This document shows, in pieces, positions 5,242-32,000 of a stretch of DNA of 32,000 bases. The translations under genes and the position numbers were made by a program. Positions within the stretch are counted from its first letter, which is position 1, and each line of letters begins with the position of its first letter. The DNA comes from Candidatus Saccharimonadota bacterium (GTDB lineage Bacteria > Patescibacteriota > Gracilibacteria > Absconditabacterales > Absconditicoccaceae), in contig JAUIDC010000001.1 in the NCBI GenBank assembly GCA_030429145.1, positions 90,001 to 122,000 on the forward strand, written 5' to 3'. The notes beneath the pieces were generated by a model, which was given only the letters and a program-made list of their open reading frames with translations, did no database searches and had not been told where the DNA came from.

Positions 5242-5267
5242 TTCTCTCACATGATAGTATATAAACA
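5242..5267. repeat. Copy 1 of a perfect 26-bp direct repeat, tctctcacatgatagtatataaacaa
   Basis: Identical 26-mer at 11742-11767. Both copies lie in AT-rich intergenic DNA. Confidence 0.9.
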
Positions 5268-5366
5268 ATATATAGCTAGATTAATAGTATTTAAATTTAG
5301 TTATATATTTACATTGCAATAGTAGAATAATTTCTATATATGGGAAATACACTAAATTTGTAGAAT

Positions 5367-5591
5367 ATGCATCCAAGTTATCCAGCTCCCAATGGCGCAT
5401 GTGTCAACAATGGGAACTTTAAAGGGCATGACTACTACTTATATGATGAAAATCCTTTTCCTTCTACTACAGAACCATCAGAAGCAGAAAGGAAGGAAGA
5501 TAATCGTTTTTATCTGAAAGTAGGGTTAATTGTACTAGGGGTAATGCTTGCAATAGGCAGTATAATTGCCATAGCATTCCCTCTCTCGTAA
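5367..5591 (+). CDS. Small hypothetical protein with a C-terminal TM anchor
   Basis: MHPSYPAPNGACVNNGNFKGHDYYLYDENPF...FYLKVGLIVLGVMLAIGSIIAIAFPLS. TAA stop, followed by a strong hairpin terminator. Confidence 0.45.
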   Translation: MHPSYPAPNGACVNNGNFKGHDYYLYDENPFPSTTEPSEAERKEDNRFYLKVGLIVLGVMLAIGSIIAIAFPLS

Positions 5592-5610
5592 TTGTATTAT
5601 TGTGGTATTT

Positions 5611-5639
5611 AAAAGCCTACCGTATCTGGTAGGCTTTTA
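5611..5639. terminator. Bidirectional rho-independent terminator between convergent genes
   Basis: aaa-agcctacc-gtatct-ggtaggct-ttt: an 8-bp GC-containing stem flanked by an A-run and a T-run. Confidence 0.7.
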
Positions 5640-5649
5640 GCGTATGTTA

Positions 5650-6690
5650 TTATTTACATGCATTTTCAATAATTGAAAATTTCTTGTTTTTACAATCTAA
5701 TTCGGCTTCAACTCATAAAGGCAGAACAAACATAGGGTCTGTATGTCAAAAGTCCATATTGGTAATTATAGGTAACTTATTAAGTCATAATTCTTTATTA
5801 ATAATCTTTATCAATTGCTCATCATAGTTTCATTGAATATTTGTTGCATAGTCCATTTGAGCTCTTCCTAGAAGAATACCTTTAATTACATGTAAGATAC
5901 CTTGTGAGCCTAAGTTTCTTATAATTCTTTCAAAGTGTGTATCTGACATTTTCTCTTCTGAAGGCTCGAGAAAAAGTATCTTATCTTTCCATTCTTCTAC
6001 AGAAGGTCGGATAGATGTTCATATCATGAAAGGGAATACGTCGATACATCCTCATAGCAGTTTCCCCGTTACTATACCCTCTCCCTGTAACCATCTCCAA
6101 TTAGAAGCCGGAAGAAGGTTTCTTTTCTTGTTTTGATTTTCTGGATTGTTCCATGGAAGAAATTCATTCGTCCATCATTCTTTATTTGGGGCAATTTCTC
6201 CTATAACCTCTGAAGAAAAAATAGTTTTATCGACTGCATCTACCATATATGGGAATAATCATCCATTTTCACCAAACCCCGCCATAATACTCGGTCCATA
6301 GAAGGATACAACACCAGCTTTATAGCAAATAAAGTGACTAATAGTAGTATCAGAGTATCCCACAAATACTTTAGGGTTATTTCTTATAACATCAAAATCT
6401 ATGTATGGAAGTATTCTTATTGATTCTTCTCATCAGATTGTAGAAAATATACCTTTAATGGTCGGGTCTTTAAAAGCATCCATTAAATCTTTAGCTCTTT
6501 CTTCTGGATGCGCATATACCCAATTTGGGTCTTGCATAGTATTATTCATTTCTACTACTTCAACTCAGAATTGCTCTGTTAATTGCTTTTTACCAACCAT
6601 ATATCTGTCTGGCACTGCTCATGGACCACCCCAAGAAAGAGATACTGTTGCTACCCTATCTCCTTTTTTTAAATGTTCAGGTTTTATCAT
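5650..6690 (-). CDS. S66 family serine peptidase (LD-carboxypeptidase / MccF-like), 346 aa
   Basis: MIKPEHLKKGDRVATVSLSWGG..EERAKDLMDAFKDPTIKGIFSTIGGEESIRILPYID...NPKVFVGYSDTTISH (nucleophile Ser in GYSD)...LGGCIDVFPFMIGT...ILFLEPSEE...ITNMDFGHTDPMFVLPLG (His). 9 in-frame TGA, mostly at family Gly positions. The ATG at 6690 overlaps the stop of the upstream gene. TAA stop at 5650-5652. Confidence 0.85.
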
Positions 6691-7946
6691 TCTTTCTTTT
6701 TAGCATTTAAAAAATTAGTTATTGTACTCATTTTCTTATCTACATTATAAGTACTATTGAATTTACATCAATACTGATGAATAGCTCTATAATCAACTTC
6801 TATATTTAGATGATTTGCTAGATTTTTAATACTTTCGTCAGAATTCTCAACAACTTTTCCATGTTTCTCAGAGATAATTTGTGAACTTGCGGACCCGACA
6901 TCAGTTGCAAACACATAACATCAGAAATATAATGCTTCCAAAACAACGCGACAATAGGCTTCTGACCTTGAAGGAATTATGACATAAGCACATTTAACAT
7001 AGATATCTTGTAATTCTTCAATTGGGAGATAGCCCAAAAAAAACACATTTTTATATAATTTCAATTCTTGTACTAAAATTTCAACTTTTTCATCCAATCA
7101 TAAGGATGACCCACATATATAGAAATTAAACTTGTTATCCTTTTCATTTAAGGTTTTTACCAGTTCTGCAAATCTATCAAATCATTTCTCATATGATAAC
7201 CTTCAGACATACAAGATATTATTAGTGTTTTTAGAAGACAATTCATCTGTATTCAAGGGTGGAAGAGAAAGGTCATTATTAATCTCAATAGCTGAACTAT
7301 TAACCAATAACGTGTCTTCTAATATTATCTTATTCTTACAAATAACTAAGTCTGAGTATTGTTTCGTTTCTAAATCTTTTTGCAGAATAACCTTACTATG
7401 AGGCAATTTGAATGTTTCAATTGACTGTAGTTCTTTTTCATTTACATGAATAGTGGAAACTAGTGGTGTTTTAAAGTAATCAGCAAGCATTCTACTTGCA
7501 TCTATAGTAAACCAAGATGTAGGAGTATGAATAAAGTCAAAAGAAATTACAGACAATCATTGTTTGCGTCTTTCAGAGTTAACTTGGGCTATCTCTAATA
7601 AAACATGTTGGAAAAGATTTTGATTATATGCATATAATATCTGTTCTGCTTCAGCATCTGTGCGAGCTTCTACAAAAGCATCATAAAAATCTTTATCAGA
7701 TGAACCAACTGCTCTTTTGATAGTATAATTATATCCATCAAACGATATAGATTGATTATTATACCAGTTACTAGCGTGAACTAATATTTTACATCATTTA
7801 TTGAACGCATAAATATCTTCTTGAGTTGTACTATGACCCGTTCATCGCATATTTTTATTGTTTTTAGAAATTTGAGGATATGGAGATTTTTCCTCTAGCA
7901 GACAATAATCGAATGTTACGTTAATATAATTATACATTATATACAT
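6684..7946 (-). CDS. GT-B fold glycosyltransferase (GT4-like)
   Basis: N-domain FDFIHTPTSWFTIDASRMLADYFKTPLVSTIHV. C-domain GRLSYEKGFDRFAELV...FNFYICGSS...VFFLGYLP..LQDIYVKCAYVIIPSRSEAYCRVVLEALYFGCYVFATDVGS. Several TGA encode Gly. Start is ATG 7946 (or 7937), overlapping the stop of the upstream gene. TAA stop at 6684-6686. Confidence 0.8.
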
Positions 7947-9159
7947 TCGCAAGTAAATCCGTTCCCATTCCTCCAACAATCATTTTCTCTTTCTTATCTG
8001 ACAACAATCTTGCTGACCAATCGACTATTCCTCCATCAAATACATCACACACATCTCCCCTTTCATTTTTTAGAAATCAACTAAATGCTAAGCCCTTATA
8101 ATGACCAACTCACCACATTCTTCCTAAATCAATGGAAATATTTAAATTCAAATCTTTATAAACCTCCTCTAAACTCTGTAGGTGATTTAATATTTTACCT
8201 ATATACTCCATATTAAAATCTATATTATTTTGCTGTAAGATTTCACTCAACTCAGCAATGTCCTTTCATTTGAGTTTACCAGTCAAACCTAGATACTCAT
8301 CTAATTGAGGCTCTTGTGCGAACCCATGCTTAGTTCTATAATCTAATTGATATTTTCTAAACTGATGAGCTTGATTTGCTCATTCTTCTAATGTAGTAAG
8401 TCATTCTTTTTCTTTAAAAAGATATGGAAGTATATCTAAATCAGAGATAGTGACATCTAAAGAGGTAAAGTTTATCTGTCCATCATTTTTTAGATGTTTT
8501 AAAATAGTAAGGTATTTATTTAATAAATCGTATGTGTGTTTTTTTTCAAATCAATAACCTGGCTGAGACCTTCACGCATAACAATTCGCCATTACTTGGA
8601 AATGAGCTTTAGGTTTATGATAAGCATCATTTGCTCAATGAAATGACTGTGTTCTTAAACAAGTTAAAAAACTAGCTAATTTTATAGTTTCATTGTTTTT
8701 TTCTTTCTTTCTCATAACAGAAGCTTCTAAAGCTAACCCCATTGAACCATCTGAGGTAATATCATATCCTCTTATTGTTGTTAATGCTCTTTTCTGACTA
8801 ACATTATTAAGATAGTGCGCTAGTCAAAAAGGGAATACAGGAGAAAGACGAATAAAATCTCGTTCCGGCATATGTTTAAGGATAGTGTTTTCTATATTAT
8901 GCAGTCATCTAATATTTGAAGTGCTTGCTTTAGGAAATCTACTTAATTCATATTGTCAAAGAATAGCTTGAGCATCTGTATTTATACTTCTATTTTCATA
9001 TACATCCAGTAATAGAGAAATTAATGTCTGAGTAGGCAATTGAGCAAGCTTATCTATAATTTCTGTATCCTCTCAAAATGCCTCAACTATCTGCTGAGCA
9101 ACTTTATCTTTTTTAACCTTTCTAGGGGTCTTTTCTCAGTGACTTGGGAGTTTTTCCAT
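7930..9159 (-). CDS. Hypothetical 409-aa protein with a class II aminoacyl-tRNA-synthetase-like (HisRS/HisZ-like) C-terminal signature
   Basis: Continuous frame with 13 in-frame TGA and no TAA/TAG. IDLGRMWGVGHYKGLAFSGFLKNERGDVCDVFDGGIVDWSARLL....MIVGGMGTDLL resembles the LDYYTG-x-xFE ... GGRYD ... GxGxGxxRL region of class IIa enzymes. A possible degenerate motif 2 is LRTQSF...AHFQVMANCYAG. The family call is tentative. Confidence 0.55.
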
Positions 9160-9183
9160 AGTTTATATCTAGTTGCTAAATAA

Positions 9184-9996
9184 TTATGCAGAGAATAGTG
9201 ACCATTGCTCATTCACTGATTTCTTTCTAAAAATAAGCAAACTTGCTCCTAAATACTTATGGTTTTCTGTAAAGAGAGACATTATTCGGAATAGTTTGTA
9301 TTCGGCAGCTTTTTTTTCATCTGCAGATAATTCACTTAATTCAGGTCTGTTAACCATATATCTACAATACTCTAATAGTTTTTTATGGTCTACATGTGCA
9401 TATTCTCCTTCGTATTTATGAAAAAGTTTTAATCCCTGCTCTTCATATGTATCTACCCGGTAATCTATGCCCCACTTTTGAATATTTAAATTCATTAGAT
9501 TATTCATTTCATCTATAATATATTGTGGAGCATCTTTCTTATAATACATCACTACATCTGCTACGAAGCCATCATCCTTACAAACTCTTACCATTTCTGC
9601 AATAGCTTTCTTCTTATCCGGTACAAAAGCTACTCCCCCCGCACTAAATACTAAATTAAATTCAGCATCTGAGAAATCTAAAGATTGAGCGTTCATTACT
9701 TTGTAGCTTACTTGCTCACTCATTTCCTCTTTTGCTGTCAATTCGGTTGCAGTAGTGACCATATTCTCATTAATATCAATACCTATCCCCTTTGCACCTG
9801 TTAACTTAGCTACTTCTCTAGTGCTTGAGCCTGTATTACAAGCTATATGGAGAAATTTTGCATCTGAATGCAAAAATACATTTTTTATCATCTCGGTAAG
9901 CATTTTTTCACCTCCAGGCGCTCTATTAGTCTCTTTAAGAAAAGCCATAAAATCTACATAAGGCATAGTAATGATTTTTTCTACTGCGTTCTGCAT
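9184..9996 (-). CDS. SAM-dependent methyltransferase (270 aa)
   Basis: Intact standard-code ORF. FLHIACNTGSSTREVAKLTGAKGIGIDINENMV (motif I-like) and LVFSAGGVAFVPDKKKAIAEMVRVCKDDGFV (post-II/III). A 5-nt gap to the upstream gene and 24 nt to the downstream gene. Confidence 0.75.
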   Translation of the reverse strand: MQNAVEKIITMPYVDFMAFLKETNRAPGGEKMLTEMIKNVFLHSDAKFLHIACNTGSSTREVAKLTGAKGIGIDINENMVTTATELTAKEEMSEQVSYKVMNAQSLDFSDAEFNLVFSAGGVAFVPDKKKAIAEMVRVCKDDGFVADVVMYYKKDAPQYIIDEMNNLMNLNIQKWGIDYRVDTYEEQGLKLFHKYEGEYAHVDHKKLLEYCRYMVNRPELSELSADEKKAAEYKLFRIMSLFTENHKYLGASLLIFRKKSVNEQWSLFSA

Positions 9997-10001
9997 AAAT
10001 G

Positions 10002-11150
10002 TTAGGGATTAGGGATTAAATGTGTTCTTGGGAATATAGTAGCATGAGTTATCATGGGTTGGTTAGTTAACCAATGCATCAGCCTTTGTCGTCCTACTCC
10101 AAATCCACTCGTAGTCGCATAATTTATTCCATCTCTGGATGAGAGATATGGCAGATAATCTTCTTGAGGCAGATTAAAGATATTTGCTTTTTGTAAGAGT
10201 ACTTCCTTATTTCTTATTCTTTGACCGCTACCAATCACTTCTCTATATCCATGTAATATCATGTCTGCATTTTTAGCTAAAGGATGTCCTTCTATTTCCT
10301 CATCAGCAACATCATGATAGAAGGGAATTTGAAGCATAGGAAAGCTATGAACAATATAATTCCCCCTTAAAATTTCTCCTAATCTTATTTCTTCCCATGA
10401 ACCAAAGTTTTTTAATGAAAACTCCTTGTAAACTTCATCCTTCGTATCATCATATAGGAGATTCAATGCCTCTCTTAAAGATAGCCTTACCATGTTTTTG
10501 TTAATAATATCTTTTTTTTCTTGTAATTGTTCATCAGTAAGAAAGAACTGCAAATCCTCTTGGTTATGTTCCATCACATAACCAATAATAAACTTAAAAA
10601 GGTCTGAAAATATTCAAATATTTTCCTCAAAATTTACCTTCCCTTCAAACTCAATATGCTGAAATTCCGTCAAATGAGAAAAATCAGATTTTTCTTTCCT
10701 AAAACTATTATATATACTGAATACCTCATCTATATTCGCTTCACAGAGAGCTAGTTCTAGATATAGCTGAGAACTTTCTGAGAGAAATATTCTTTTATTG
10801 CTTTCAAACCATTGAGGTATTTCAATAGGCAAGGCATCTGTAGTGTAATTCAATGTTTGTCCTGCATAGACTTCTCATGGTGAAGAAATCATAAGTGTAG
10901 TTATAGGAACATTACACCACTGAGCTTTTCTGTTTATAAAGAAAGTAGTTGTAGCTTGAAAAATTGCATTGTCTAACCTCGCAAGATGATTGAGCATTTG
11001 CACTCTTTTTTCTGAAGAGTTATCTATGGGCTGAATATCTTGGAAGGAAGCAAACTGGATATTTTCTATAGGTGCAAAAATTTTATTTCAACTATAAGAT
11101 ATAGTTTTATTATTATCCAAGTTCGCTTTATAAGGCATACATATTCACAT
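10002..11150 (-). CDS. Class IIb aminoacyl-tRNA synthetase catalytic-core paralog (AsnRS/AspRS/AsnA-like) without a recognisable anticodon-binding domain
   Basis: Motif 1 region FFINRKAQWCNVPITTLMISSPGE. Motif 2 SFRKEKSDFSHLTEFQHIEFEG. Motif 3 TSGFGVGRQRLMHWLTNQPMITHATIFPR. Joins three track ORFs through TGA at 10614 and 10875 (plus others). Start is ATG 11150 or 11138. TAA stop at 10002-10004. Confidence 0.8.
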
Positions 11151-11161
11151 AAGAAATAAAT

Positions 11162-11617
11162 TTATTTTTTATGCTGACGTATTTTACTGGCTAACTCCTC
11201 TAATTCCTCATCCGATTTCTCATAACCTAGAATGGTACTAATATACCCTCTATATTCAGGGAAAAACACTCTTTCCTCTGAACCCATAGGAGTAAATTTC
11301 TCCGTTAATCCATGGAGTGGATAAAGCTTCATATGAGCATGATTAATACCCATTCCTTCCATTACCATTGCCACCCTCTTTACATCTAATGCTTCTTGTA
11401 ATAGCTCTGCAACTTTTTTAGTTGACGATAAATATGCCATATAATCCTTTTCTGGCATATCAAACACATGTGAATCATGGTGCTCCCTAGAAAGCACCAA
11501 AGCCATGCCTTCTGTATTAGGAAATTTGTCTAAAATTGCTACTACATTTTCATCCTCATAGATTTTAGCACCATATTTCTTTCCATCTACTATATCACAA
11601 AAAAGACAGTTTTTCAT
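11162..11617 (-). CDS. HIT (histidine triad) family hydrolase
   Basis: MKNCLFCDIVDGKKYGAKIYEDENVVAILDKFPNTEGMALVLSREH...GMGINHAHMKLYPLH. CxxC-like N-terminus plus a HxHx(K) triad-like motif. First gene of the operon. Confidence 0.75.
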   Translation of the reverse strand: MKNCLFCDIVDGKKYGAKIYEDENVVAILDKFPNTEGMALVLSREHHDSHVFDMPEKDYMAYLSSTKKVAELLQEALDVKRVAMVMEGMGINHAHMKLYPLHGLTEKFTPMGSEERVFFPEYRGYISTILGYEKSDEELEELASKIRQHKK

Positions 11618-11741: not shown

Positions 11742-11767
11742 TCTCTCACATGATAGTATATAAACAA
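11742..11767. repeat. Copy 2 of the perfect 26-bp direct repeat, tctctcacatgatagtatataaacaa
   Basis: Identical to 5242-5267 and exactly 6500 bp away. It lies 125 nt upstream (minus sense) of the HIT gene start. Confidence 0.9.
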
Positions 11768-11787: not shown

Positions 11788-12450
11788 TTAAACTAAGAAT
11801 GAATTAGCAATTCTTTCTAATGCCTCATTATCAACTTTAGTTATTTTATGTAATTCACTATCATCTAAATTAGCTAATATTTGTTCTGCAAGAGCTCATT
11901 TATCTCTTAATCTTAAATCTGCTTTAAATTCAACATCTAATTCCTCATTTTCTATATATTTATCCATTTGACTTAGCATGCCTTTATTCAGTTTATTTAA
12001 CTTTATTAATGTTTCATAATTTAGCTTATAGTGAGACTTATGTAGTAAGTATATAAAATCAGGGTCTAATAAATCTTTTCCACCTTTGTATTTTTCTATA
12101 GTATTCATTAGTGCTCTATATTTCCCGGTTAACTTACCTTTACATTGTGGACATGCATATACATCATAGAAATCCTTTATGCTTCCTACTTCTTCGTTAA
12201 AAAGTATGTTAAAAAATCTTGAGGTAAGAGTGAAAAAGTAAATATGAGTTTCATCTATACTTACTATAAGCCACATGTGTCATTTGTCTCAAATGGCATT
12301 CGCAATATCTGGGTTTCCTCCCCTATTAATAAATTCTTGGGTACTCATACCATTTTTTAGAAAAACCCTATATATCTTTCCAACTTCAAAAATATCTACA
12401 GTCGACTTTGGCTTTAATCAAGAAAGTAAGTTTTCAAAAGGCTTATCCAT
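11788..12450 (-). CDS. Hypothetical 220-aa protein, candidate toxin partner of the adjacent Panacea-domain antitoxin
   Basis: MDKPFENLLSGLKPKSTVDIFEVGKIYRVFLKNG...GDKGHMWLIVSIDETHIYFFTLTS...CPQCKG...LHKSHYKLNY.... Extends track ORF 11896..12276 on both sides via TGA. The ATG at 12450 lies 11 nt after the stop of the upstream gene. The N-terminal pattern only weakly recalls PemK/MazF-type barrels. Confidence 0.55.
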
Positions 12451-12461
12451 TATTGTTTTAT

Positions 12462-12995
12462 TTAAATACTGAGATTATCTGCAAATCAGAAATAAATAGG
12501 TCTAAACATTTCTGTATTCAGATATCATGTTTCCTTGTGAGACTTATCTACAATCTCTTTAGTCCCTAACCTACCCAATTTATCTTTTACTTCCTCTACA
12601 ATAGAAATTTCTTTTTCGGATAAATGTTCTGCAAGGTTAATGGATTGCTTACATATAATTGCATATTTAATATATCATTCTTTCGTTTTCTTCTTATCGA
12701 TGCCTAAATAAGAACTATATAACTCATATTTCTTTTGCTCATCTTCATCTTCGATATCTGTTAATGAAACTCCTACTTTTTCAGTAATAATAAAGTCTAT
12801 TCTAGATTTAATAGATAGCGGAACGGGACCATAAGGTAATTTATAATAAATTTCTCCTGTAATAGAGACTTCTGTGCGTTTATAAAAAAGGAAATCAATA
12901 TAAAATAGTAATTTATATAATTTGGTTTGATATAAATCAGACAAATTCTCTGCTAAGTAGCAGATGATTGCTAAGTCTTTAGAAATCTCTCCCAT
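12462..12995 (-). CDS. Panacea (DUF4065, SocA/GepA-like) domain protein; probable antitoxin
   Basis: MGEISKDLAIICYLAENLSDLYQTKLYKLLFYIDFLFYKRTEVSITGEIYYKLPYGPVP matches the T-KL-KLLYY...G.P......Y....GPV signature of DUF4065. Continues through TGA at 12675 to TAA at 12462-12464. Confidence 0.7.
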
Positions 12996-13167: not shown

Positions 13168-13647
13168 ATGGAAGCATTAATAAGTGCTCTCACATGATGA
13201 TTAATAGGCTCTTTGGTGATTTATCACTTCACGCTTAAGAAAGACAGATTTTTAAATTTACAGCAAAAAGGAGAGCAATTACTACAATATATATACGAAT
13301 ACCAAGACATCCTAATGCTTGTAGATAGGGAACGCGAGAAGTTGGATGATATTAAGGATGACATTGTAAGTATAGAAGAAAAACGAGATAAAGCATATAA
13401 AGAATATAATTTGATTAATGACAGCAAACAACGTTTAAGGGAAAAAATATGGACGTTAATTAATATATACTTCCCGAGTTTAGCAGATGATTTTAGGGAG
13501 TATACTCATATTGAACTATCTCATACTCCGGATAAAGAAAAAAACGTCCAAACGATGCACTCAAGAGAAAATAAATTATCAGATATATCTCATAAATTAA
13601 TCAAGATAATCAATAAGGAAAGAGTATTTGGGATATGGAAAATTTAA
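13168..13647 (+). CDS. N-terminally membrane-anchored coiled-coil protein (159 aa)
   Basis: With ATG 13168 and two TGA=Gly, the N-terminus reads MEALISALTGGLIGSLVIYHF (TM-like). The rest is Lys/Glu/Asp-rich and heptad-like (REREKLDDIKDDIVSIEEKRDKAYKEY). Its 3' end overlaps the KAP gene start by 13 nt. Confidence 0.55.
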
Positions 13648-15980
13648 ATGAAACAATTATTACATATCTTATTATCATGCAGTATATCCCTGACAATCCT
13701 TTAGACAGCTATCAATATGACGAATTAAGAAGAGAGAACTTCATTAATTCACTTCTAAAGCTCATACAATATGGATGAAATGCACAAGACAATAAAAGCT
13801 CTGTTGTTTTAGGAATTGAATGAAAATGGGGAGATGGCAAGACTACTATTTTGAAATTTCTAGAAGAAAAATTAGAAGAGGAAGATACCATAGAAGTAAT
13901 GTGGTTCGAGCCATGGCTTTACAATAAAGATGTTGATATACATACTAAGTTTTTTGATGAATTAGCAAGTACATTATGAAGTAGTAAAAAAATAAAACTT
14001 GATGAAACACAAATACGTCAAATTGAACAATATAGCAAAATAATTTGACCTTTTCAGGACCCCACATGGGATACTGTAAAAGGCAAGGTTGGGAACTATC
14101 TAGTAGACGGGTTTATCACTATAGGCGTATTTGCCTGTACGGTCGCAACAAATATCACTTGGAAAGCAGTGTCATTTATATTAACATTTTTAATAACCTC
14201 TCGAAGAAAAATTATTTCTACTCGAGTAAATATTAAAATAACTAGAATTTTGAAAAATAAGGTAGATTTAGAACAACAGAGAGACAATATTTCTCATATT
14301 CTTTCATCTAAAGAAAAGAAATTAATCGTTATAATTGATGATATTGATAGGTTAGAAAGTGAACAATTAAAAGTTATTCTACAAATTGTCAAATCAAGCG
14401 CGAACTTTCCAAATGTCATATATATATTAAGTTATGATAGAGAAATTGTAGAAAATGTAATAAGTAATTTATATGGAAAAGAGAACAATTATCTTGATAA
14501 AATTATCCAGTTACCTGTCTCTCTTCCTCTTGTAAGAGAAGAAATAATAACAGAAATCTTGGATAAACACTTAGAACAATTTCTAGAATATATAAAATCT
14601 TTTTGACGAAAGACTTTAACGAAAGAAGAGACTAGTGAGCTAACAAATTTATTTGTAAAGGGCTATAAATTTTTCTTTAAAAACATTAGAGACATTAAAA
14701 AATACATTAACTTACTATATGTAGATTTTCTTACATTACAAAGTAAATACTCGTGACCGGAAATAAATATAATCGATTTTTTAATTATAGAAGCTTTTAA
14801 ACTATTTACCAAGCCTCTTTTCTATTTTCTATACTATCAAAAGAACAACTTGTTTTCATATAGAGGTAAAGATGACGCCCTAACCCCTCTACAAGAAATT
14901 TTTGATGATTTTTTAAAAAATAGAAATTTATTAGAATACAAAGAACTTCTATATGAACTGTTCCCTCAATTTAATAAACGCAACTATGGCATTGAAACAA
15001 CTGAAGAAATACAAAATAGAGTTTGCTCAAAAAAAAGTTTCCATAAGTATTTTGAGTTAGACATATTTTGAACTCCAAATAGTGAGTTTATAGAATTTAG
15101 GGAAAGAATAAAAAAATGACAAATGTCCCAAGCAATTAAAATATTTAAAAAAGTTGAAAATGAGGGATGAGCCTATGAGTTTATTGATAGAATTGGGAAA
15201 GTACTACTAATTGACAATAAAGAAACGCTCTCAGAAGTCGAAATAGTGGCTTTATTGCTTTTTTTAATCAACAATGAAAAAAATATAGATTTCAAACCTC
15301 TTGGTTTGTTTGACAGCTTGTATGGACCAGAAGTTATAATAATGAGAAGTATCTATCAATCCATGCTTAGATATTATGATAACAAAGATATCTTTCTCGA
15401 AATAATGTATGCTCTTATAGAAGGTGCAGATGATATTTGGCAAGTATGCAGATACTTTCGCAATCATTTACGAGATGAAAAAAATGAGGAAAGAACAAAA
15501 ATCGAAGATATTAAGTTACAAGAAAGATTGGGGGATGACATCAATTCTATATTAGATAAAATCAATCTTAAGATTAAAAACCTTCTTAAGAGTGGGAAAA
15601 TATTAGACCAAATCTCTCGAAGATTTATTTTATACTTCTATGCAACAATTTCTGGAAAACAGAAACAAGTACTTAATCGGGTAAAGAATATTTCACAAAA
15701 TATAACTACACTAAATAAATTTTATAAATCATATTTTACTAAATCCCACTCTCAAACAATGCCAATGTTTAGCTGAGACAAGATGGGACCTTTAAAAGAA
15801 AAAATATCCTTTGATATCAAAGGGTTAACAGAATGGCGCAAGTTATGAAAAATAGAAAAAGACCTTTCGAAATTATATTCTCATAATTTACTTACTGAAC
15901 ATGAATTTCAACTTGCTCAAAAAACTATTGAAGCATTTAAGAACAACAAAGAATATGATGATGATAATTATGATGATTAG
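13635..15980 (+). CDS. KAP family P-loop NTPase (781 aa) with two TM helices inserted in the NTPase domain
   Basis: Walker A VVLGIEGKWGDGKTTIL (first Gly = TGA at 13821-13823). Inserted TM pair LVDGFITIGVFACTVATNITWKAVSFILTFLITS. Walker B/KAP signature LIVIIDDIDRLESEQLKVILQIVK...NVIYILSYDREIV. Joins four track ORFs in one frame. TAG stop at 15978-15980. Confidence 0.85.
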
Positions 15981-17427: not shown

Positions 17428-17607
17428 ATGGCAATGGTTGAGCTCGCTAGGGATAAGTTGTGAGATGTGATTAAAGATAAAAATGATATGGAGGTAGTAG
17501 AGTTCATTAACCAATGTAGAAGAATGGCAAATTTTGCTATTGATTGCGCAGAGCAGAAATTAGAAACTGGTTTATTATCTCAATCACAATCATGACTGGA
17601 GAATTAG
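17428..17607 (+). CDS. Small ORF (59 aa) overlapping the recombinase start; possible accessory/directionality factor
   Basis: MAMVELARDKLGDVIKDKNDMEVVEFINQCRRMANFAIDCAEQKLETGLLSQSQSGLEN (2 TGA=Gly). It overlaps the ATG at 17592 by 16 nt. No recognisable motif. Confidence 0.25.
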
Positions 17608-19199
17608 CAGTAGTATATAGCAGAATATCCTCAACAACACAAGAAAGCTGAGGTGGATTAAATAGTCAGGCTGTCGCATGTAGGCAATATTGTGACCATC
17701 ACAAATATGAAGTAATCAAAGAATTTAAGGATGTCATTTCGGGAGGAGAAGAAAATAGACCCGGGCTGAATGAACTCTTGAATTTTATAGATGAATACAA
17801 TAGGTCTCATAGCAAAAAAATTACTATTTTTGTTACCCATAGTGTTAATAGAATAGCAAGAAGCTTTGAAGTACATTTAAGTCTAACGACTAAACTACGC
17901 GTAAAAGGCATCAGAATTGAAACTGTAGAAATGAAGTTTGAAGAGACCCCTATCTGAAAACTCATAGAATGAATAATGGCATTACAATCTGAGTACTTCA
18001 GAAATGAGAATACAGAAAGAGTAATTTCCAGACAAGAAGCAAGATTATTGGATGGCTACCGGTCATTCGATTATCCTATTGGCTATGTAACAACTAATGC
18101 TCCAGCTGGAGGCAAATTACTTATTCCAGATGAGCCCAATGCATCTATCATAAAAGAAGCCCTTGAAGGTTATGCCTTTGGAAGATTTAATAGCATCTCA
18201 GAAGTCACAGAATTTTTGACAAAGAGAAATTTAGATTTAAGCAGGACTTCTAAGAAAAGGAAGAAAGATAGCAATATTATTCACAATTCTCTTACTGCAA
18301 GAATATTAAAACAAATACTTTATACGGGTTATATTCAATATCATAAAACCACATATAATAAAAAAGGATTAATCAAAAAACAGTGGAACATTCCTTTAAG
18401 AAAAGGCAAACATGAGTGAATAATTGATTTATCCACTTATTATACTATTCAAGAAAAACTAATTGGAAAAAGACCTTACGAAAAAGATATAAAGAAACAA
18501 AATAATGATTTCCCATTAAGGTGATACTTAGTATGTGATTGTTGCAACTTAAAATTTAGTTCCGGTCTTTCAAGAAGCGGAAGCAAGAAGCAAATACCCT
18601 ATTATCAATATAATAAAATCTGCCAAAACAAAGGAAAATCAATTAATGCAAACCACCTACACCATGAATTTGAGCATCTCATTAAAAGTCTAAAGCCAGA
18701 TAATAATTTCTTAGATTTTATGAAAATAATTATTCAATCAGAATACGAAAAGAGAAATAAAGATAAAACCATTAGTAAACAGCAATTACAAAGAAAACTT
18801 AGAGAATTAGATAAAGAAATAGATAATCTCATTAAAACCTTAGCTACAACAAACCTTCCTTTAACTAAGCAGAGAATAAGCCATAAGATTGAAGAAGCAG
18901 AGATGAAAAAACTACAAATGGAAGACGAAATTAATTGAACATCCGGCGATACGCTTCCTAAACAAGTTATTGATATAGCATGCTCAGTATTAGAAGACCC
19001 TTATTATATACGAGAGGGTGGATATATAGAGCAGAAACAAGCTTTAATAAATATTTTGTTCAGTAAAAAAATTCCAATCAATAAATCGACTGGAACTTTC
19101 TGAACACTGCCATTAAACAGTTTCTACCTATACTCTTTTAACAATTCAAAGTCTAAATTACAAACATCTGGAGGTGACGAGAGTCGAACTCGTGTCTAG
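17592..19199 (+). CDS. Large serine recombinase (integrase), 535 aa
   Basis: Resolvase-type catalytic N-terminus AVVYSRISSTTQESGGGLNSQ...PGLNELL...IFVTHSVNRIARS. Recombinase domain ...YTGYIQYH.... Zn-ribbon-like CDCCNLKF...YYQYNKIC, then a coiled-coil tail (LQRKLRELDKEIDNLIKTL). Joins track ORFs 17976..18419 and 18720..18938 via TGA. TAG stop at 19197-19199, inside ssrA (antisense). Confidence 0.85.
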
Positions 19200-19516
19200 A
19201 AGTCATGAATAAAGCCTTACTACCATCATAGTCAGTATATTATTCCACAAGGGCTATCCTTGGCCTACGGACAGGCATGATACTTTAAGGGTTGGGTTGG
19301 CACAAGGCCAATTTCCTGCTCAAGCGCCTTGAGTCTAGCAGGAGTCGGGTCTCAAGGTTAAGGCGTTAACTAGGCAGCGTATGCGTAGTTGAACGCAGCA
19401 AGTCTCATGTTAGAGTTTGCATTTTGTGGGTGAACGATTCTTTTATCCTCGGTACGCTCATCGAGCAATGGCTAGATTTAGTCATGGTGTACTCCTATCA
19501 AAACCAGCACACCCCC
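19169..19516 (-). ncRNA. ssrA: tmRNA (SsrA), about 348 nt, CCA not encoded
   Basis: 5' GGGGGTGTGCTGGTTTTGATAGG... and 3' ...ACGAG-TTCGACT-CTCGT-CACCTCC-A. The acceptor stem GGGGGTG/CACCTCC has the G3:U70 alanine identity pair, and there is a T-arm with a TTCGAnT loop. The tag ORF resumes at GCA (19420): ANSNMRLAAFNYAYAA, then TAG (to 19370). Confidence 0.85.
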
Positions 19517-28923: not shown

Positions 28924-31900
28924 TTAATTTTTCACTCTCCACCCCTGCGCTAACAATGGCTCTGCTTTTTTGTATTTCATCTCTTCTTCTTTGCCATCAG
29001 GGCTGATAACAGTCACAAGGTCATTTCTTCCGTATTTCTTCTCAGTATGTTGTATAGGAGCTTGCTGTTTTGGCATCTCTACTACTTCGACACCGTCGTC
29101 CTGTGCAAAGGCATTTGCGTATTGTTGTTGCTTAGCCTGTGTCGCATTTTGTGGCATCGGCTGAGCACGTCTTGCATTTGGCGTAAACTCAGGAACATCT
29201 TGCGATGCCTCATGCAGTCTTTCAAGCATCTGATCATTTTGCTGATCTTGCGTCCTGATCATGGCCTGTGTTTCTGGTCCGCGGAAGTCACTACGGAAGA
29301 CAACAGCTATAGTTTCCTGTTTGATGTTGAACATCAGCTGCTGAAATTTCTCAAATGCTTCCTTCTTATAAATAACCAATGGGTCTTGCTGTGCATAACC
29401 ATAGAGTCCAACCTTATCACGCAAGTATTGCATGTCATCAATATGCTGAATCCAATATTTATCAATCATCGCTAGATAGATCATACGAAGCGTTGCATCC
29501 ATCGCACGAGGATCAATACCTGCAATTTTTCTATCAAAGTACGTCTCAAACGAGTCAATAAGCTGTCCTTTCAGGTCTTTAATCGCACGTACTTTTTCTG
29601 TATTGATAGGCAATGTATCAAAGCCAAAGTCCTGCTTGATTGTCTCGACAACCTCCTTGAGATCCATCTGTGCATTCTCGTATTTCTTCACAATACCTTC
29701 CACCACATCTTCGATGAAGGCCCTAATCTCAGCTATAGTTGAGGTCGTTGACTGCTTCGTCTCTACAGCGATATAAGGAAGGATTTCTGGCTCTTGTGCT
29801 GCACAGATATGCTCTTCTTTGGCATCAATCATTATTGGTTCCACATTGAGTTGCTCTGCTAAGTGTTTACCTGCTCTTGGTGGAACATCGGTATCATTTT
29901 TATCTTGAATAACAACTATCTCATCGGCAAGAGATTGCATCTTTGCAAAATCAAATTTCCAATCAAACGTTTGGAAAAATGGTACAATCTCTCCATCTAC
30001 CATGTCAGGTCACGTAAATCCTGACAACAACACTAGTTTCCTAATCTTCACACCCTTTCTCTCCAATGCTTTCATGGCCACTACTGCTCCAAGCGAATGT
30101 CACACAAGGATAGTATTTACATTGAATTTTGCATTGTCGACGATAAATGAGATTTGTTCTTCCACATTTGGTTCGTCAGGATTTGGTAGTGGTGGATTGA
30201 GTACGATACCACCTTTCGCTTCAAGTTCCTTCTTGAGCCATGGAATAAAGTTTGCGTCCGGTCTTCACTCAAAACCGTGAAGTATCATATAGTTAGGAGT
30301 TTTTTCTTCGAGTTCAAGCATCTCATCACGCTTGGTGTAGATACGCTGTCTTTGTTTATTGATCACCGAATCGTAGTCGAAGAGATGTTTACGGATAGAA
30401 AAGTTCCATCCCTCCATCTGTTTCTGCGCACGGATAATTGATGATGAAAACTGTTTCTGTGTCAGTTCAAGATTTTCCAATTCCTCTCTTGAAAGAAGCA
30501 TACCTGCAACGGATTGGATTCTCTCACCTCCCATCTTACGCATGATCTCATCATCAAGCGCTACGTAGAAGACTGACATACCTGGATCTCCCTGACGTCA
30601 TGCACGACCTCTGAGCTGATTGTCGATACGACGTGATTCGTGTTTTTCCGTACCGAGGATAAACAATCCGTAATGAAGATTTTTTGACACTAGCCCTTCC
30701 GTATTTCCATCAGCAGCTTTCACGTGAATTTTTGCAAACCACTGTGTTGGGATTTTTTTCGCTTTATTAAATGAGATCTCTATGTGCTTACCTGCTACAT
30801 TGAGGATTCCCTGCTCTGCCGTACGAATCTGCTCATCGCTGAGACCCCACGTCTGTTTCATCGCTTCGATGGTAAAATCGAACTCTCTTTCAGAAAAGAC
30901 AGTTGCCTTTACGTCGTGCGGAGCGACCTTGCCAAATGTATTTCATTGTAGTGTTTGGTCTATCCATTTGATATAGTTTGTAGCAATTTTCTCATTGAGT
31001 CACTTCTCAAGCTTGATGTCGGTACCACGTCATGCCATATTGGTTGCAACGACTACAGAACCAGACTTTCCAGCATTTGAGACGATCTCAGCCTCTTTCT
31101 CATGAAACTTTGCATTGAGTACGTAGTGCTGTACTTGGATTTTACGTAGGATCTCCGATACGAGCTCCGAAGTATGGATGCTCGACGTACCAATAAGGAT
31201 AGGCACTCCTGCATCATGGTAGAACTTGATCGCGTCTACGACCGCCTTCCACTTTGCATTTTGATTGAAGTAGACCTTATCATGCCAGTCTGCACGGATG
31301 ATTGGTCTGTTCGTCGGGATACTCAACACCTCAAGATCATAGATCTTTTCAAACTCTTCACCTTCAGTCGTCGCAGTACCTGTCATACCTGCCAGCTTAT
31401 TATACTGCTTGAAAAAATTCTGGTAGGTGATCGTTGCGAGAGTTTGCGACTCGCGCTGGATGGTCACACCCTCTTTTGCTTCTATAGCCTGATGGAGCCC
31501 CTCAGAATAACGACGTCATGGCATCGTACGTCCTGTGTGTTCATCTACAATCAGGATCTCACCATCATGCACAATATAGTCCTTATTGTTATGATAACAC
31601 GCCTGTGCCTTCAACGCATTTTCTATATGATGAATCTCATCAAAACCAAAATCTTTATACAAATTTTCTACTCCAAGGGTCTTCTCCAATTTCTCGATAC
31701 CCTGCCCACTGAGGGTCACATTTTTATTCTTCTCATCGATATAGTAGTCGCCATCTTCTACCTGTTCATCCTCTTTCTTTAACACCTCGGCTAAGAAACC
31801 TTTTGGTGTTTTCTTTTTTTGCGAACATGGCGTCAGTGTACGAACGATCTTTGAGTAGTAGTCATACTTCTCTGTCGGATCAGCCGAAGGCTGCGAGATG

Positions 31901-32000
31901 ATCAATGGCGTTCTCGCCTCATCGATCAAAATAGAGTCGACTTCGTCGACGATAGCAAAATTGAGCGGACGCCGTGTCACATTACGCTCAGAAAGCGAGC
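28924..32000 (-). CDS. secA: Preprotein translocase ATPase SecA (5'-truncated by the window end) carrying an internal alpha/beta-hydrolase domain insertion
   Basis: Five track ORFs are in one frame. DEHTGRTMP-[TGA]-RR, ATNMA-[TGA]-[18 protein letters not shown]-[TGA]-RQGD and [17 protein letters not shown] are canonical SecA blocks. TAA stop at 28924-28926. Confidence 0.9.
29770..30291 (-). other. In-frame serine-hydrolase (YdeN/RBBP9-like alpha/beta-hydrolase) domain inserted in the SecA helical scaffold/wing region
   Basis: [41 protein letters not shown]...[16 protein letters not shown] (GxSxG)...[12 protein letters not shown] (Asp)...AKEEHI (His). Flanked by the SecA blocks [16 protein letters not shown] and [13 protein letters not shown]. 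Confidence 0.7.

Follow-up and report, generated by a model that had tools for sequence, protein, structure and literature searches.

A six-gene, minus-strand operon was identified in a tiny UGA-recoded (Gracilibacteria-type) bacterium, whose conserved core, consisting of an AsnRS-like enzyme, a SAM-dependent methyltransferase (MTase) and an MccF-clade S66 peptidase, is homologous, gene for gene, to AgnA, AgnB1 and AgnC5 of the gene cluster for the 'Trojan-horse' antibiotic agrocin 84. These evidences suggest that the operon is a horizontally mobile cassette for the biosynthesis of, and the self-protection against, a small aminoacyl-nucleotide, most likely an N-acyl-phosphoramidate, although the chemistry is inferred and no product is known. 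To our knowledge, within the literature we could search, such a cassette has not been described in the CPR bacteria.

Organization of the six-gene cassette

The analysis was performed on a window of 32,000 nt (contig JAUIDC010000001.1, assembly GCA_030429145.1). With the standard genetic code the region breaks into short ORFs. On the contrary, treating UGA as a sense codon restored six long minus-strand ORFs and raised the coding density of the window from 0.64 to 0.93. UGA codons fall on conserved Gly positions, as in the case of S66 residues 86-87 (TIGGEES), which align to IGG in PDB 5f1y, and this fits code 25. The genes are separated by 11 (or 23, according to the start codon of the second gene), 5 and 24 nt, followed by overlaps of 17 and 7 nt, thus confirming the tight packing reported in the preliminary description. 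This arrangement is not due to chance, since the same six genes in the same order occur at 76% nucleotide identity in a relative.

The first gene (nt 11162–11617) codes for a 151 aa HIT-family hydrolase (PF01230, 41.7 bits; closest PDB match 1y23, E=7e-11), carrying a variant triad H-x-H-x-K instead of H-x-H-x-H and thus lacking the third histidine. The second ORF (nt 10002–11150) encodes a 382 aa AsnRS-like catalytic core, with translation probably starting at M5 (nt 11138) because homologues begin with MPYKA. Pfam assigned it to tRNA-synt_2 (95.9 bits), with no OB-fold anticodon-binding domain, and the protein aligned only to positions 125-446 of the NCBIfam asnS model, scoring 144 bits against a cutoff of 414. 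The best Foldseek hits were AsnRS structures (E=4e-19), motifs 2 and 3 are intact and all ATP-binding and Asn-recognition residues are conserved. The third gene (nt 9184–9996) codes for a 270 aa class I SAM-dependent methyltransferase of the AgnB1 type (Methyltransf_11/25).

The fourth gene (nt 7930–9159) encodes a 409 aa protein, here termed P409, showing only marginal sequence hits to HisZ/HisRS (E=1.9e-5 and 0.008). However, its AlphaFold model (pLDDT 84.9) matched HisZ/HisRS over about 350 residues, with HisZ 3od1 at E=9e-16 (prob 1.0). The preliminary description, which had noted a resemblance to the HisRS/HisZ motif-3 region at the C-terminus, therefore understates the similarity, as the whole protein is a HisRS-like class IIa catalytic domain, with no anticodon-binding domain and with a degenerate motif 3 where the arginine is absent (G-x-G-x-E-L). 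The P409 family includes 1,694 clusters at 50% identity and has no Pfam model. The fifth gene (nt 6684–7946, with an alternative TTG start at nt 7979) codes for a GT4 glycosyltransferase of about 420 aa (Glycos_transf_1, 101 bits). The last gene (nt 5650–6690) encodes a 346 aa S66 serine peptidase (Peptidase_S66 and S66C, 109 and 99 bits), in which the GYSD, E and GHTDP motifs are conserved. This protein groups with MccF-type enzymes and not with LdcA, as it scored 333 bits to B. anthracis BA3275 (PDB 5f1y), 129-147 bits to BaMccF and EcMccF and only 44 bits to LdcA 5z01, while the score against the NCBIfam LdcA model was 83 bits where the cutoff is 378.

Noteworthy, the cassette is bracketed by a perfect 26-nt direct repeat (TCTCTCACATGATAGTATATAAACAA), with the right copy (nt 11742–11767) located 125 nt upstream of the HIT start codon and the left copy (nt 5243–5268) 382 nt beyond the S66 stop codon. 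Two copies were found in the window whereas none was expected from 100 shuffles, and similarity ends sharply at the repeat edges. The bracketed segment of 6.5 kb holds only the six genes and one small ORF. A hairpin with a 14-bp stem (nt 5609–5640), found by a consensus scan only, lies between convergent genes just downstream of the S66 stop codon and looks like a terminator. Nucleotide similarity to the relative runs from the HIT start codon to within a few bases of the S66 stop codon. The cassette is located in a low-GC island (about 5–19 kb) that also carries a SocA/Panacea antitoxin (nt 12462–12995) and a KAP NTPase (nt 13635–15980), and one end of which is marked (nt 17544–19516) by a large serine recombinase (nt 17544–19199, plus strand) abutting and overlapping the 3' end of the tmRNA gene (nt 19169–19516, minus strand).

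Distribution of the core triad and homology with the agrocin 84 cluster

Only 32 Patescibacteria loci were recovered among 185,579 species representatives. AsnRS-like, MTase and S66 form a contiguous triad in 29 of these 32 loci, whereas the accessory slot is variable, being occupied by HisRS-like, AlaRS-like, ProRS-like or LysRS-like proteins or by an ATP-grasp enzyme. P409 was found with the triad in 12 loci and in the locus designated as L047. HIT and GT4 are lineage-specific add-ons and not part of the conserved system, being specific to this cassette and one 76%-identical relative; among the loci examined, HIT was adjacent to the triad only in the window and in loci L001–L004 and L026, and GT4 occurred within the cassette only in the window and in loci L001–L003. 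Unrelated glycosyltransferases were present in L047 and in the Exiguobacterium cluster described below.

The preliminary description did not recognize this gene combination as a described system, but a described relative does exist in the agrocin 84 (agn) cluster of pAgK84. Indeed, the AsnRS-like family HMM hit AgnA, annotated as the agrocin 84 synthetase, at E=2e-40. The MTase is 29.6% identical to AgnB1 over the full length (E=3e-44; HMM E=2e-71) and the S66 protein is 32.6% identical to AgnC5 (E=5e-53; HMM E=8e-95). The AsnRS active site is fully conserved in all 29 CPR proteins and, apart from two substitutions, in the 7 AgnA-type proteins. However, a rough NJ tree placed the CPR AsnRS-like clade next to archaeal canonical AsnRS, with the AgnA clade outside that pair, so that orthology of the adenylating enzyme with AgnA is not demonstrated and independent recruitment is possible. 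Moreover, about half of the CPR loci carry a second methyltransferase subtype (MTb) matching AgnB1 only weakly (E=1e-7 to 1e-12), and P409 has no counterpart in the agn or Xenorhabdus clusters and is unrelated to AgnC1 (hhalign probability 0.4%).

The same ordered triad was found on a Xenorhabdus bovienii megaplasmid (AsnRS-like family HMM E=3e-49), followed by a nucleoside phosphorylase, an extra leuS, another aaRS-related protein and an MFS pump, all flanked by recombinases. Related plasmid clusters, with accessory genes homologous to the CPR ones, were found in Exiguobacterium (AlaRS-related protein, MTase, AgnA-like, GT, ATP-grasp and a second AlaRS), Streptomyces (AgnA-like, MTase, molybdopterin oxidoreductase, class IIa aaRS-like protein, S66 and MFS), Bradyrhizobium (S66, AgnA-like, HAD and MTase) and Bacillus (MTase, AgnA-like and ATP-grasp, with ahcY nearby). 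The MTase family HMM scored 130-263 bits against every MTase that sits next to an AgnA-like gene in five other lineages. In these other places the module is often associated with resistant-target-like extra aaRS copies and efflux pumps.

Alternative interpretations

A resistance-only cassette, neutralizing aminoacyl-nucleotide antibiotics made by other organisms such as the host, is unlikely but could be envisaged, with S66 and HIT hydrolysing the drug, MTase and GT4 modifying it and the aaRS-like proteins binding or sequestering it. MccF and MccH/HIT are indeed the two known hydrolytic immunity classes and stand-alone MccF homologues confer resistance (PMC8323819); BA3275-type S66 genes occur alone in other bacteria, for example on a Spirosoma plasmid, and the cassette holds neither an exporter nor a precursor. 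On the contrary, the AsnRS-like enzyme keeps a complete catalytic site, which a decoy would not need, its homologue AgnA is required for antibiotic production (PMC8323819), and in other phyla the module sits with exporters and second aaRS copies, as is typical of producers.

Slightly less likely is a housekeeping role, with the AsnRS-like protein being the cell's AsnRS or an AsnA/AS-AR-type asparagine synthetase, S66 a murein LD-carboxypeptidase, and the clustering reflecting only genome compaction. In favour of this reading, AgnA-type proteins are annotated at NCBI as asparagine synthetase A, the Asn-recognition residues are intact, CPR homologues are strongly conserved (50-70% identity across more than 500 sequences) and in several CPR loci the triad lies among housekeeping genes such as dnaG, rpoD and aaRS genes. 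However, although we could not check whether the genome also holds canonical asnS or hisS genes, the AsnRS-like gene behaves as an accessory gene. The protein lacks the anticodon-binding domain and scores far below the equivalog cutoffs not only for asnS but also for AsnA (105 against 389), S66 is of the MccF type, the strict co-occurrence with an AgnB1-type MTase would be unexplained, homologous triads sit on plasmids in bacteria having a normal AsnRS, only 32 loci were recovered among the species representatives, and the cassette is repeat-bracketed and lies in a low-GC island.

An aminoacylated glycoconjugate or a modification of the cell envelope, analogous to mycothiol (GT4 MshA plus the CysRS-like ligase MshC), is also unlikely. 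In this case GT4 would build a sugar acceptor, the aaRS-like ligases would add amino acids and S66 would trim peptidoglycan-like peptides. GT4 does show weak MshA/BshA-type hits, and the mix of aaRS-like and ATP-grasp ligases resembles cross-bridge or peptide ligases. Nevertheless, GT4 is absent from almost all triad loci, the closest characterised relatives of the core belong to a nucleotide-antibiotic cluster, and no lipid-carrier, flippase or wall-synthesis genes are associated with it. Modification of a macromolecule, as by EpmA on EF-P or GluQRS on tRNA with the MTase as a second modification step, is very unlikely since, despite the known aminoacylation of EF-P by class II aaRS paralogues without an anticodon domain and a weak NCBIfam genX hit, no conserved linkage to efp or tRNA genes was found in 32 loci and neither S66, the variable ligases nor the homology to the agn cluster would be explained.

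Inferred pathway and putative function

The preliminary inference that the cassette may synthesise, tailor or neutralise an aminoacyl-adenylate-like compound, without being a canonical mcc cluster, is supported by the S66 clade, by the conserved gene order and by the accessory behaviour of the AsnRS-like gene. With moderate confidence, we propose that the product is an analogue of an aminoacyl-adenylate of the agrocin 84, processed microcin C or phosmidosine type. Every enzymatic step is inferred, and no exporter or obvious resistant full-length aaRS is present in the window cassette. AgnA has been proposed to make the phosphoramide bond (PMC8323819), even if the route of P-N bond installation in agrocin 84 is still unknown (PMC12596934). 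The AsnRS-like enzyme, unable to read a tRNA anticodon, would adenylate asparagine and, as in the chemistry performed by MccB on a C-terminal Asn, the side-chain amide nitrogen would end up bonded to the AMP phosphorus, giving an isoasparaginyl phosphoramidate. The methyltransferase would then alkylate this intermediate, most likely at the phosphate oxygen, as in the O-methyl group of phosmidosine or the MccD-installed group of microcin C; its role is however uncertain, as agrocin 84 itself has no O-methyl phosphate.

The S66 enzyme would perform the one reaction known for MccF, which cleaves Asp from processed microcin C (PMC8323819), by cutting the Asp carbonyl-N bond, thus either releasing a nucleoside 5'-phosphoramidate (P-NH2) as a building block or destroying toxic product as immunity. 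The variable second ligase, here P409, would re-acylate that NH2 with its own amino acid, as AcmF and SbzA, aaRS-like enzymes that aminoacylate an NH2 group, do on sulfamate and sulfonamide NH2 groups (PMC12945691). In this cassette GT4 would add a sugar, either as an uptake handle or as a pro-drug mask, and HIT, a phosphoramidase-type enzyme like MccH (PMC8323819), would provide additional immunity or salvage. Compounds of this type inhibit an aminoacyl-tRNA synthetase, and the acylation step assigned to P409 would set which synthetase is targeted. The cassette most likely makes, and protects its carrier against, a mimic of an activated amino acid that blocks protein synthesis.

Gene content and genomic setting of the cassette

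Under the standard bacterial code the region is a litter of short ORFs. When UGA is read as sense, six long minus-strand ORFs appear at exactly the coordinates of the preliminary description and coding density in the window rises from 0.64 to 0.93. UGA falls on conserved glycines, as for the two UGA codons at residues 86-87 of the S66 protein, which align with 'GG' in the closest solved homologue; the window therefore uses code 25, as in Gracilibacteria and Absconditabacteria. In transcription order, the genes code for a HIT protein (11617-11162), an AsnRS-like core (11150 or 11138 to 10002), a SAM methyltransferase (MTase, 9996-9184), a 409-aa protein here termed P409 (9159-7930), a GT4 glycosyltransferase (7946-6684) and an S66 peptidase (6690-5650), with gaps of 5-24 nt or overlaps of a few bases. 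Pfam and NCBIfam searches confirmed each domain call.

The AsnRS-like protein aligns only to the catalytic part of the asnS model (positions 125-446), with a score of 144 bits against a cutoff of 414. No OB-fold domain is present, no tRNA_anti-codon Pfam hit was obtained, and the structural model shows only two short hairpins before the core. The best AsnA model scores 104.9 bits against a cutoff of 389, whereas the best structural matches are AsnRS structures. Class II motifs 2 and 3 and the Asn-recognition Glu and Arg are kept, and the residues corresponding to R151, E153, E167, R311 and R356 are invariant in all 29 CPR sequences.

Sequence searches of P409 against the PDB gave nothing, or only E of about 0.3. 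On the contrary, a confident AlphaFold model (pLDDT 84.9) superposes on HisZ, HisRS and the GCN2 HisRS-like domain (Foldseek to HisZ 3od1, E=9e-16, TM 0.55-0.69). The motif-2 Arg and the R-x-x-G-x-G-[YH]-Y and D-G-G motifs are retained, but motif 3 reads G-x-G-x-E-L, thus lacking the arginine, and the protein ends at the catalytic domain without any anticodon-binding domain. The hisZ model scores 24 bits against a cutoff of 272.

The S66 protein is not an LdcA-type enzyme. It scores 333 bits to B. anthracis BA3275 ('MccC family'), 129-147 bits to the microcin C immunity peptidases BaMccF and EcMccF and 44 bits to LdcA 5z01, LdcA structures ranking last among the PDB hits; the score against the LdcA equivalog model is 83 bits, with a cutoff of 378. 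The catalytic Ser/His/Glu motifs are kept. The HIT protein (11162-11617) gave a Pfam HIT hit above the cutoff, although its motif reads H-A-H-M-K, with the third His replaced by Lys, and the protein has a C-terminal extension. Its closest relatives among the loci fetched are HIT genes of Aenigmatarchaeota (L034:8632-9093 and L037:4394-4894), that of L034 being convergent with a canonical AsnRS gene and overlapping its end. Comparison with the PADLOC models of anti-phage defence systems gave only generic domain-level hits, to the MTase domain of mad2 and to the ThsC HIT.

The cassette lies in a stretch of about 14 kb, from about 5 to 19 kb, of lower G+C (0.28-0.34, against 0.36-0.45 outside). 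Immediately upstream of the cassette are conflict-type genes, namely a SocA/Panacea-domain antitoxin (12462-12995) followed by an unannotated 220-aa protein (11788-12450), which may be its toxin partner, and a 781-aa KAP-family P-loop NTPase (13635-15980). At 17544-19516, the gene of a large serine recombinase overlaps by about 30 nt the 3' end of a tmRNA gene (tag peptide ANSNMRLAAFNYAYAA). Taken together, these features suggest an island integrated at ssrA, although no att-like copy of the tmRNA 3' end was found at the far boundary. Noteworthy, a perfect 26-nt direct repeat (5243-5268 and 11742-11767) brackets a 6.5-kb segment holding only the six genes and one small ORF (5367-5591, + strand), which encodes a 74-aa protein with a C-terminal transmembrane segment and of unknown function and is convergent with the operon and absent from the relative's flank. 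No such match is expected by chance and similarity stops abruptly at the repeat edges. The repeat is compatible with an att-type duplication, but no equivalent was found in the relative L001, and the 26-nt sequence is absent from all 45 other loci fetched. Elsewhere in the window, a SecA protein (28924-31980, - strand, with the N-terminus running off the window) has an unusual architecture, with a PF06821 Ser_hydrolase (YdeN/RBBP9-like alpha/beta hydrolase) domain inserted at about residues 564-728 of the partial protein, between the motor domains and the wing/scaffold domain.

Conservation in CPR bacteria and comparison with known clusters

The full six-gene cassette recurs, in the same order, in a related organism (loci L001-L004). 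DNA similarity between the two (76% over 6.0 kb) starts at the HIT start codon and ends within a few bases of the S66 stop codon, while the flanks are unrelated. A scan of 185,579 species-representative genomes with an AsnRS-like profile returned 32 bacterial-type loci and three archaeal canonical AsnRS genes. Only about ten of the bacterial loci are UGA-recoded and the rest use the standard code, so the family is not tied to the recoding. By using stop-to-stop ORFs, 29 of the 32 bacterial loci were found to carry AsnRS-like, MTase and S66 genes together, in most of them in exactly that order. Two of the exceptions are cut by contig ends, whereas in the third, L023, the AsnRS-like and S66 genes are adjacent but no MTase was detected.

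HIT and GT4 are peculiar to the window and its close relative, although a HIT gene also occurs in locus L026. A further slot is variable, being occupied by the P409 family in 12 loci, by a truncated AlaRS-core-like protein in 5 loci and by ATP-grasp ligases in 3 loci; divergent LysRS-like genes (218-243 bits against a cutoff of 468) lie beside the triad in 6 loci, one of them next to a better LysRS, and ProRS-like paralogues lie inside the cluster in 2 loci, beside a bona fide ProRS. In the Gracilibacteria MAG STA_89 (L008:11141-14899), an S-adenosylmethionine decarboxylase (TIGR03330, above its cutoff) lies between the AsnRS-like gene and the MTase, and a 652-aa CotS-like kinase/HD-domain fusion between the MTase and S66, which may hint at aminopropyl rather than methyl transfer in that variant.

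Word-indexed searches for P409 returned only 2 and then 4 proteins, whereas an exhaustive profile search revealed a large unnamed family with 1,694 clusters at 50% identity. A sampled long-form member again sits in a cluster of S66, AsnRS-like, MTase, S66 and P409. The family is nevertheless broader than this system, since a shorter form of about 320 aa (L048/L049) lies next to an M24 peptidase, an APH-type kinase and a B12-radical SAM enzyme with no triad present, and members also occur fused to a GNAT acetyltransferase (L050:745-2409, 554 aa).

The key links came from a search of annotated plasmids. On a megaplasmid of Xenorhabdus bovienii CS03, 'asparagine synthetase A' (the AsnRS-like hit), a class I SAM methyltransferase and an LD-carboxypeptidase (S66) follow one another in this order and precede a nucleoside phosphorylase, two VOC-family genes, an extra leuS, another aaRS-related protein and an MFS transporter, the region being flanked by recombinases. 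On pAgK84, the agrocin 84 plasmid of Rhizobium rhizogenes K84, agnA ('agrocin 84 synthetase') is followed by a SAM methyltransferase (agnB1) and the resistant LeuRS agnB2, and agnC5 is annotated 'MccF-like'. Direct comparison confirmed homology for the three core proteins, with 25.5% identity between the AsnRS-like protein and AgnA (blastp E=1e-19, family HMM 2e-40), 29.6% identity end to end between the MTase and AgnB1 (E=3e-44, HMM 2e-71, 232 bits) and 32.6% identity over 347 aa between S66 and AgnC5 (E=5e-53, HMM 8e-95). However, in a rough NJ tree the CPR AsnRS-like clade is sister to archaeal canonical AsnRS and the AgnA clade lies outside that pair, thus common descent of the two truncated enzyme groups as a single clade is not shown. 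A shared 'SSP' motif could not be taken as a synapomorphy of the CPR and AgnA types, as archaeal AsnRS has it too. In addition, about half of the CPR loci use a second methyltransferase subtype only weakly similar to AgnB1.

The agn cluster, which is mobile and whose product is an N-acyl-phosphoramidate nucleotide mimicking an aminoacyl-adenylate and carrying a sugar handle, has 17 genes. These include the resistant LeuRS AgnB2, the exporter AgnG, the ProRS-like AgnC1 and pentanamide-tailoring enzymes, none of which is present here, the window having instead the HisRS-fold (predicted) P409, a HIT hydrolase and a GT4, in a CPR host that uses code 25. Indeed, no full-length aaRS or transporter was found in the cassette or the surrounding island, although some other CPR loci carry divergent LysRS-like or ProRS-like second copies. 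P409 is unrelated to AgnC1 (hhalign probability 0.4%, no HMM hit).

AgnA-type genes on other plasmids show the same grammar, the AgnA-like gene and the MTase being always adjacent. In Exiguobacterium, sugar-nucleotide genes, an AlaRS-related truncated protein, MTase, AgnA-like gene, glycosyltransferase, ATP-grasp, a deoxynucleoside kinase and a second AlaRS were found; in Bradyrhizobium, S66, AgnA-like gene, HAD and MTase; in Bacillus pseudomycoides, MTase, AgnA-like gene and ATP-grasp, with ahcY nearby. The Streptomyces sp. NBC_01707 plasmid (L045, 7917-16059) holds MFS, AgnA-like gene, MTase, FAD/molybdopterin oxidoreductase, class IIa aaRS-like protein and S66, a set that might be what phosmidosine would require (8-oxoadenosine, a prolyl group and an O-methyl N-acyl phosphoramidate). 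The window-type MTase HMM hits every one of the adjacent methyltransferases at 130-263 bits, and the CPR AlaRS-like and ATP-grasp proteins match their Exiguobacterium and Bacillus counterparts. The Xenorhabdus and related plasmid clusters, none of which has been characterised, carry exporters and second full-length aaRS genes (LeuRS, AlaRS) that the window lacks, and none has a P409-family or a HIT gene. On Pantoea agglomerans plasmids (L038, 8665-11176), an AgnA-type AsnRS-like domain is fused to an N-terminal GNAT acetyltransferase and followed by an MFS transporter, which may be a minimal two-gene producer-plus-immunity unit, since MccE-type immunity is also a GNAT. On the contrary, a BA3275-type S66 gene on a Spirosoma plasmid stands alone, with no triad.

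The cassette may share its immunity logic with the microcin C system, where an MccF-type S66 peptidase and an MccH-type HIT hydrolase act on an aspartamidyl-adenylate phosphoramidate, a SAM-dependent enzyme decorates the phosphate and asparagine is the source of the P-N nitrogen (PMC8323819). However, there is no MccC pump, no ThiF domain in the six proteins or their neighbours and no MccA precursor peptide, as far as can be said without a systematic scan for very short Asn-terminal ORFs, and adenylation would be carried out by an aaRS-derived enzyme on a free amino acid, not on a ribosomal peptide. P409 and the CPR AlaRS-core-like proteins also fit the pattern of AcmF (ascamycin), a truncated and catalytically degenerate AlaRS-like protein, and SbzA (SB-203208), an IleRS-like protein, both of which transfer amino acids from aa-tRNA onto a sulfamate or sulfonamide -NH2 group to make aminoacyl-adenylate mimics (PMC12945691). 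Here, the ligase would be HisRS-derived and the acceptor would be a phosphoramidate.

Inferred pathway and alternative explanations

A 2021 review of Trojan-horse aaRS inhibitors considers the agrocin 84 pathway unknown, and reports that AgnA was proposed to form the phosphoramide bond because of its aaRS-type adenylation domain, that AgnB1 is one of three SAM enzymes in the cluster, that MccF cleaves aspartate from processed microcin C and that MccH, a HIT protein, cleaves its P-N bond (PMC8323819). Putting this together with the gene content of the cassette, we infer that the AsnRS-like enzyme, whose Asn and ATP site is intact in all 29 CPR proteins and, apart from two substitutions, in the 7 AgnA-type proteins, activates asparagine and that, as in MccB chemistry, the amide nitrogen becomes bonded to the AMP phosphate. 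The MTase would alkylate the intermediate, and the MccF-type peptidase would cleave the Asp-N bond, thus either liberating a nucleoside phosphoramidate for further use or detoxifying the product. The variable aaRS-like or ATP-grasp protein, here P409, would load its amino acid on that nitrogen and set the target specificity, with GT4 and HIT as tailoring and immunity add-ons.

These steps rest on homology, synteny and residue conservation, and all of the chemistry is inference. We consider it more likely than not that this is a biosynthesis-plus-immunity cassette for an aminoacyl-nucleotide of the agrocin / microcin C class, whereas the specific modular mechanism is less likely than not. A bolder hypothesis, possible but doubtful, is that the triad is a previously unrecognised, widely distributed module using asparagine as the nitrogen donor to make a nucleoside 5'-phosphoramidate, with the 'immunity' peptidase being actually biosynthetic and releasing the P-NH2 group. 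Interchangeable degenerate aaRS-like proteins (HisRS-, AlaRS-, ProRS- or LysRS-derived) or ATP-grasp ligases would then load different amino acids onto it, resulting in a modular natural platform for aminoacyl-adenylate mimics aimed at different synthetases, which episymbiotic or predatory CPR bacteria may use as a weapon against their hosts.

Among the alternatives, a resistance-only cassette is possible, but it does not explain a fully competent adenylating enzyme whose homologue is needed for antibiotic production. A housekeeping AsnRS or asparagine synthetase with a murein carboxypeptidase is judged unlikely, being disfavoured by the missing anticodon-binding domain, the sub-threshold scores, the MccF-clade placement, the MTase partner found in 29 of the 32 loci, the plasmid-borne homologues and the mobile setting, although the rest of the genome could not be inspected for canonical asnS or gatCAB. 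A mycothiol-like aminoacylation of a glycoconjugate would explain GT4 but not the core, and GT4 is absent from nearly all triad loci. A modification of the EF-P or tRNA type has no supporting linkage.

Novelty and significance for CPR bacteria

The preliminary description was correct in its observation, and its suggestion that the cassette may synthesise, tailor or neutralise an aminoacyl-adenylate-like compound is supported and made more specific. The gene combination, for which no described system had been recognised there, is however not without precedent, as its core is homologous to the AgnA/AgnB1/AgnC5 trio of the agrocin 84 cluster and uncharacterised relatives exist on plasmids of several phyla. 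In the literature we could search, no report was found of the trio as a conserved contiguous module, of its wide presence in CPR bacteria, in more than 500 AsnRS-like homologues, of the P409 partner family with its predicted HisRS fold, or of this particular variant carrying HIT and GT4 on a repeat-bracketed cassette in a code-25 genome. P409, for which no Pfam model exists, and the AgnB1-type methyltransferase are large unnamed families that now have a context.

As of 2025, the way the P-N bond of agrocin 84 is installed was still described as unknown (PMC12596934). The persistence of homologues of three agn genes as a contiguous module across at least six bacterial lineages, with a conserved AsnRS-type active site, points to asparagine as the likely nitrogen source. 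The interchangeable aaRS-like accessory proteins suggest a family of natural aminoacyl-adenylate mimics with different targets, of interest for antibiotic discovery and chemoenzymatic synthesis. CPR/Patescibacteria have minimal genomes and are usually considered almost devoid of specialised metabolism; a conserved, mobile cluster for a synthetase-targeting nucleotide antibiotic would give these episymbionts and predators a plausible chemical weapon or defence.
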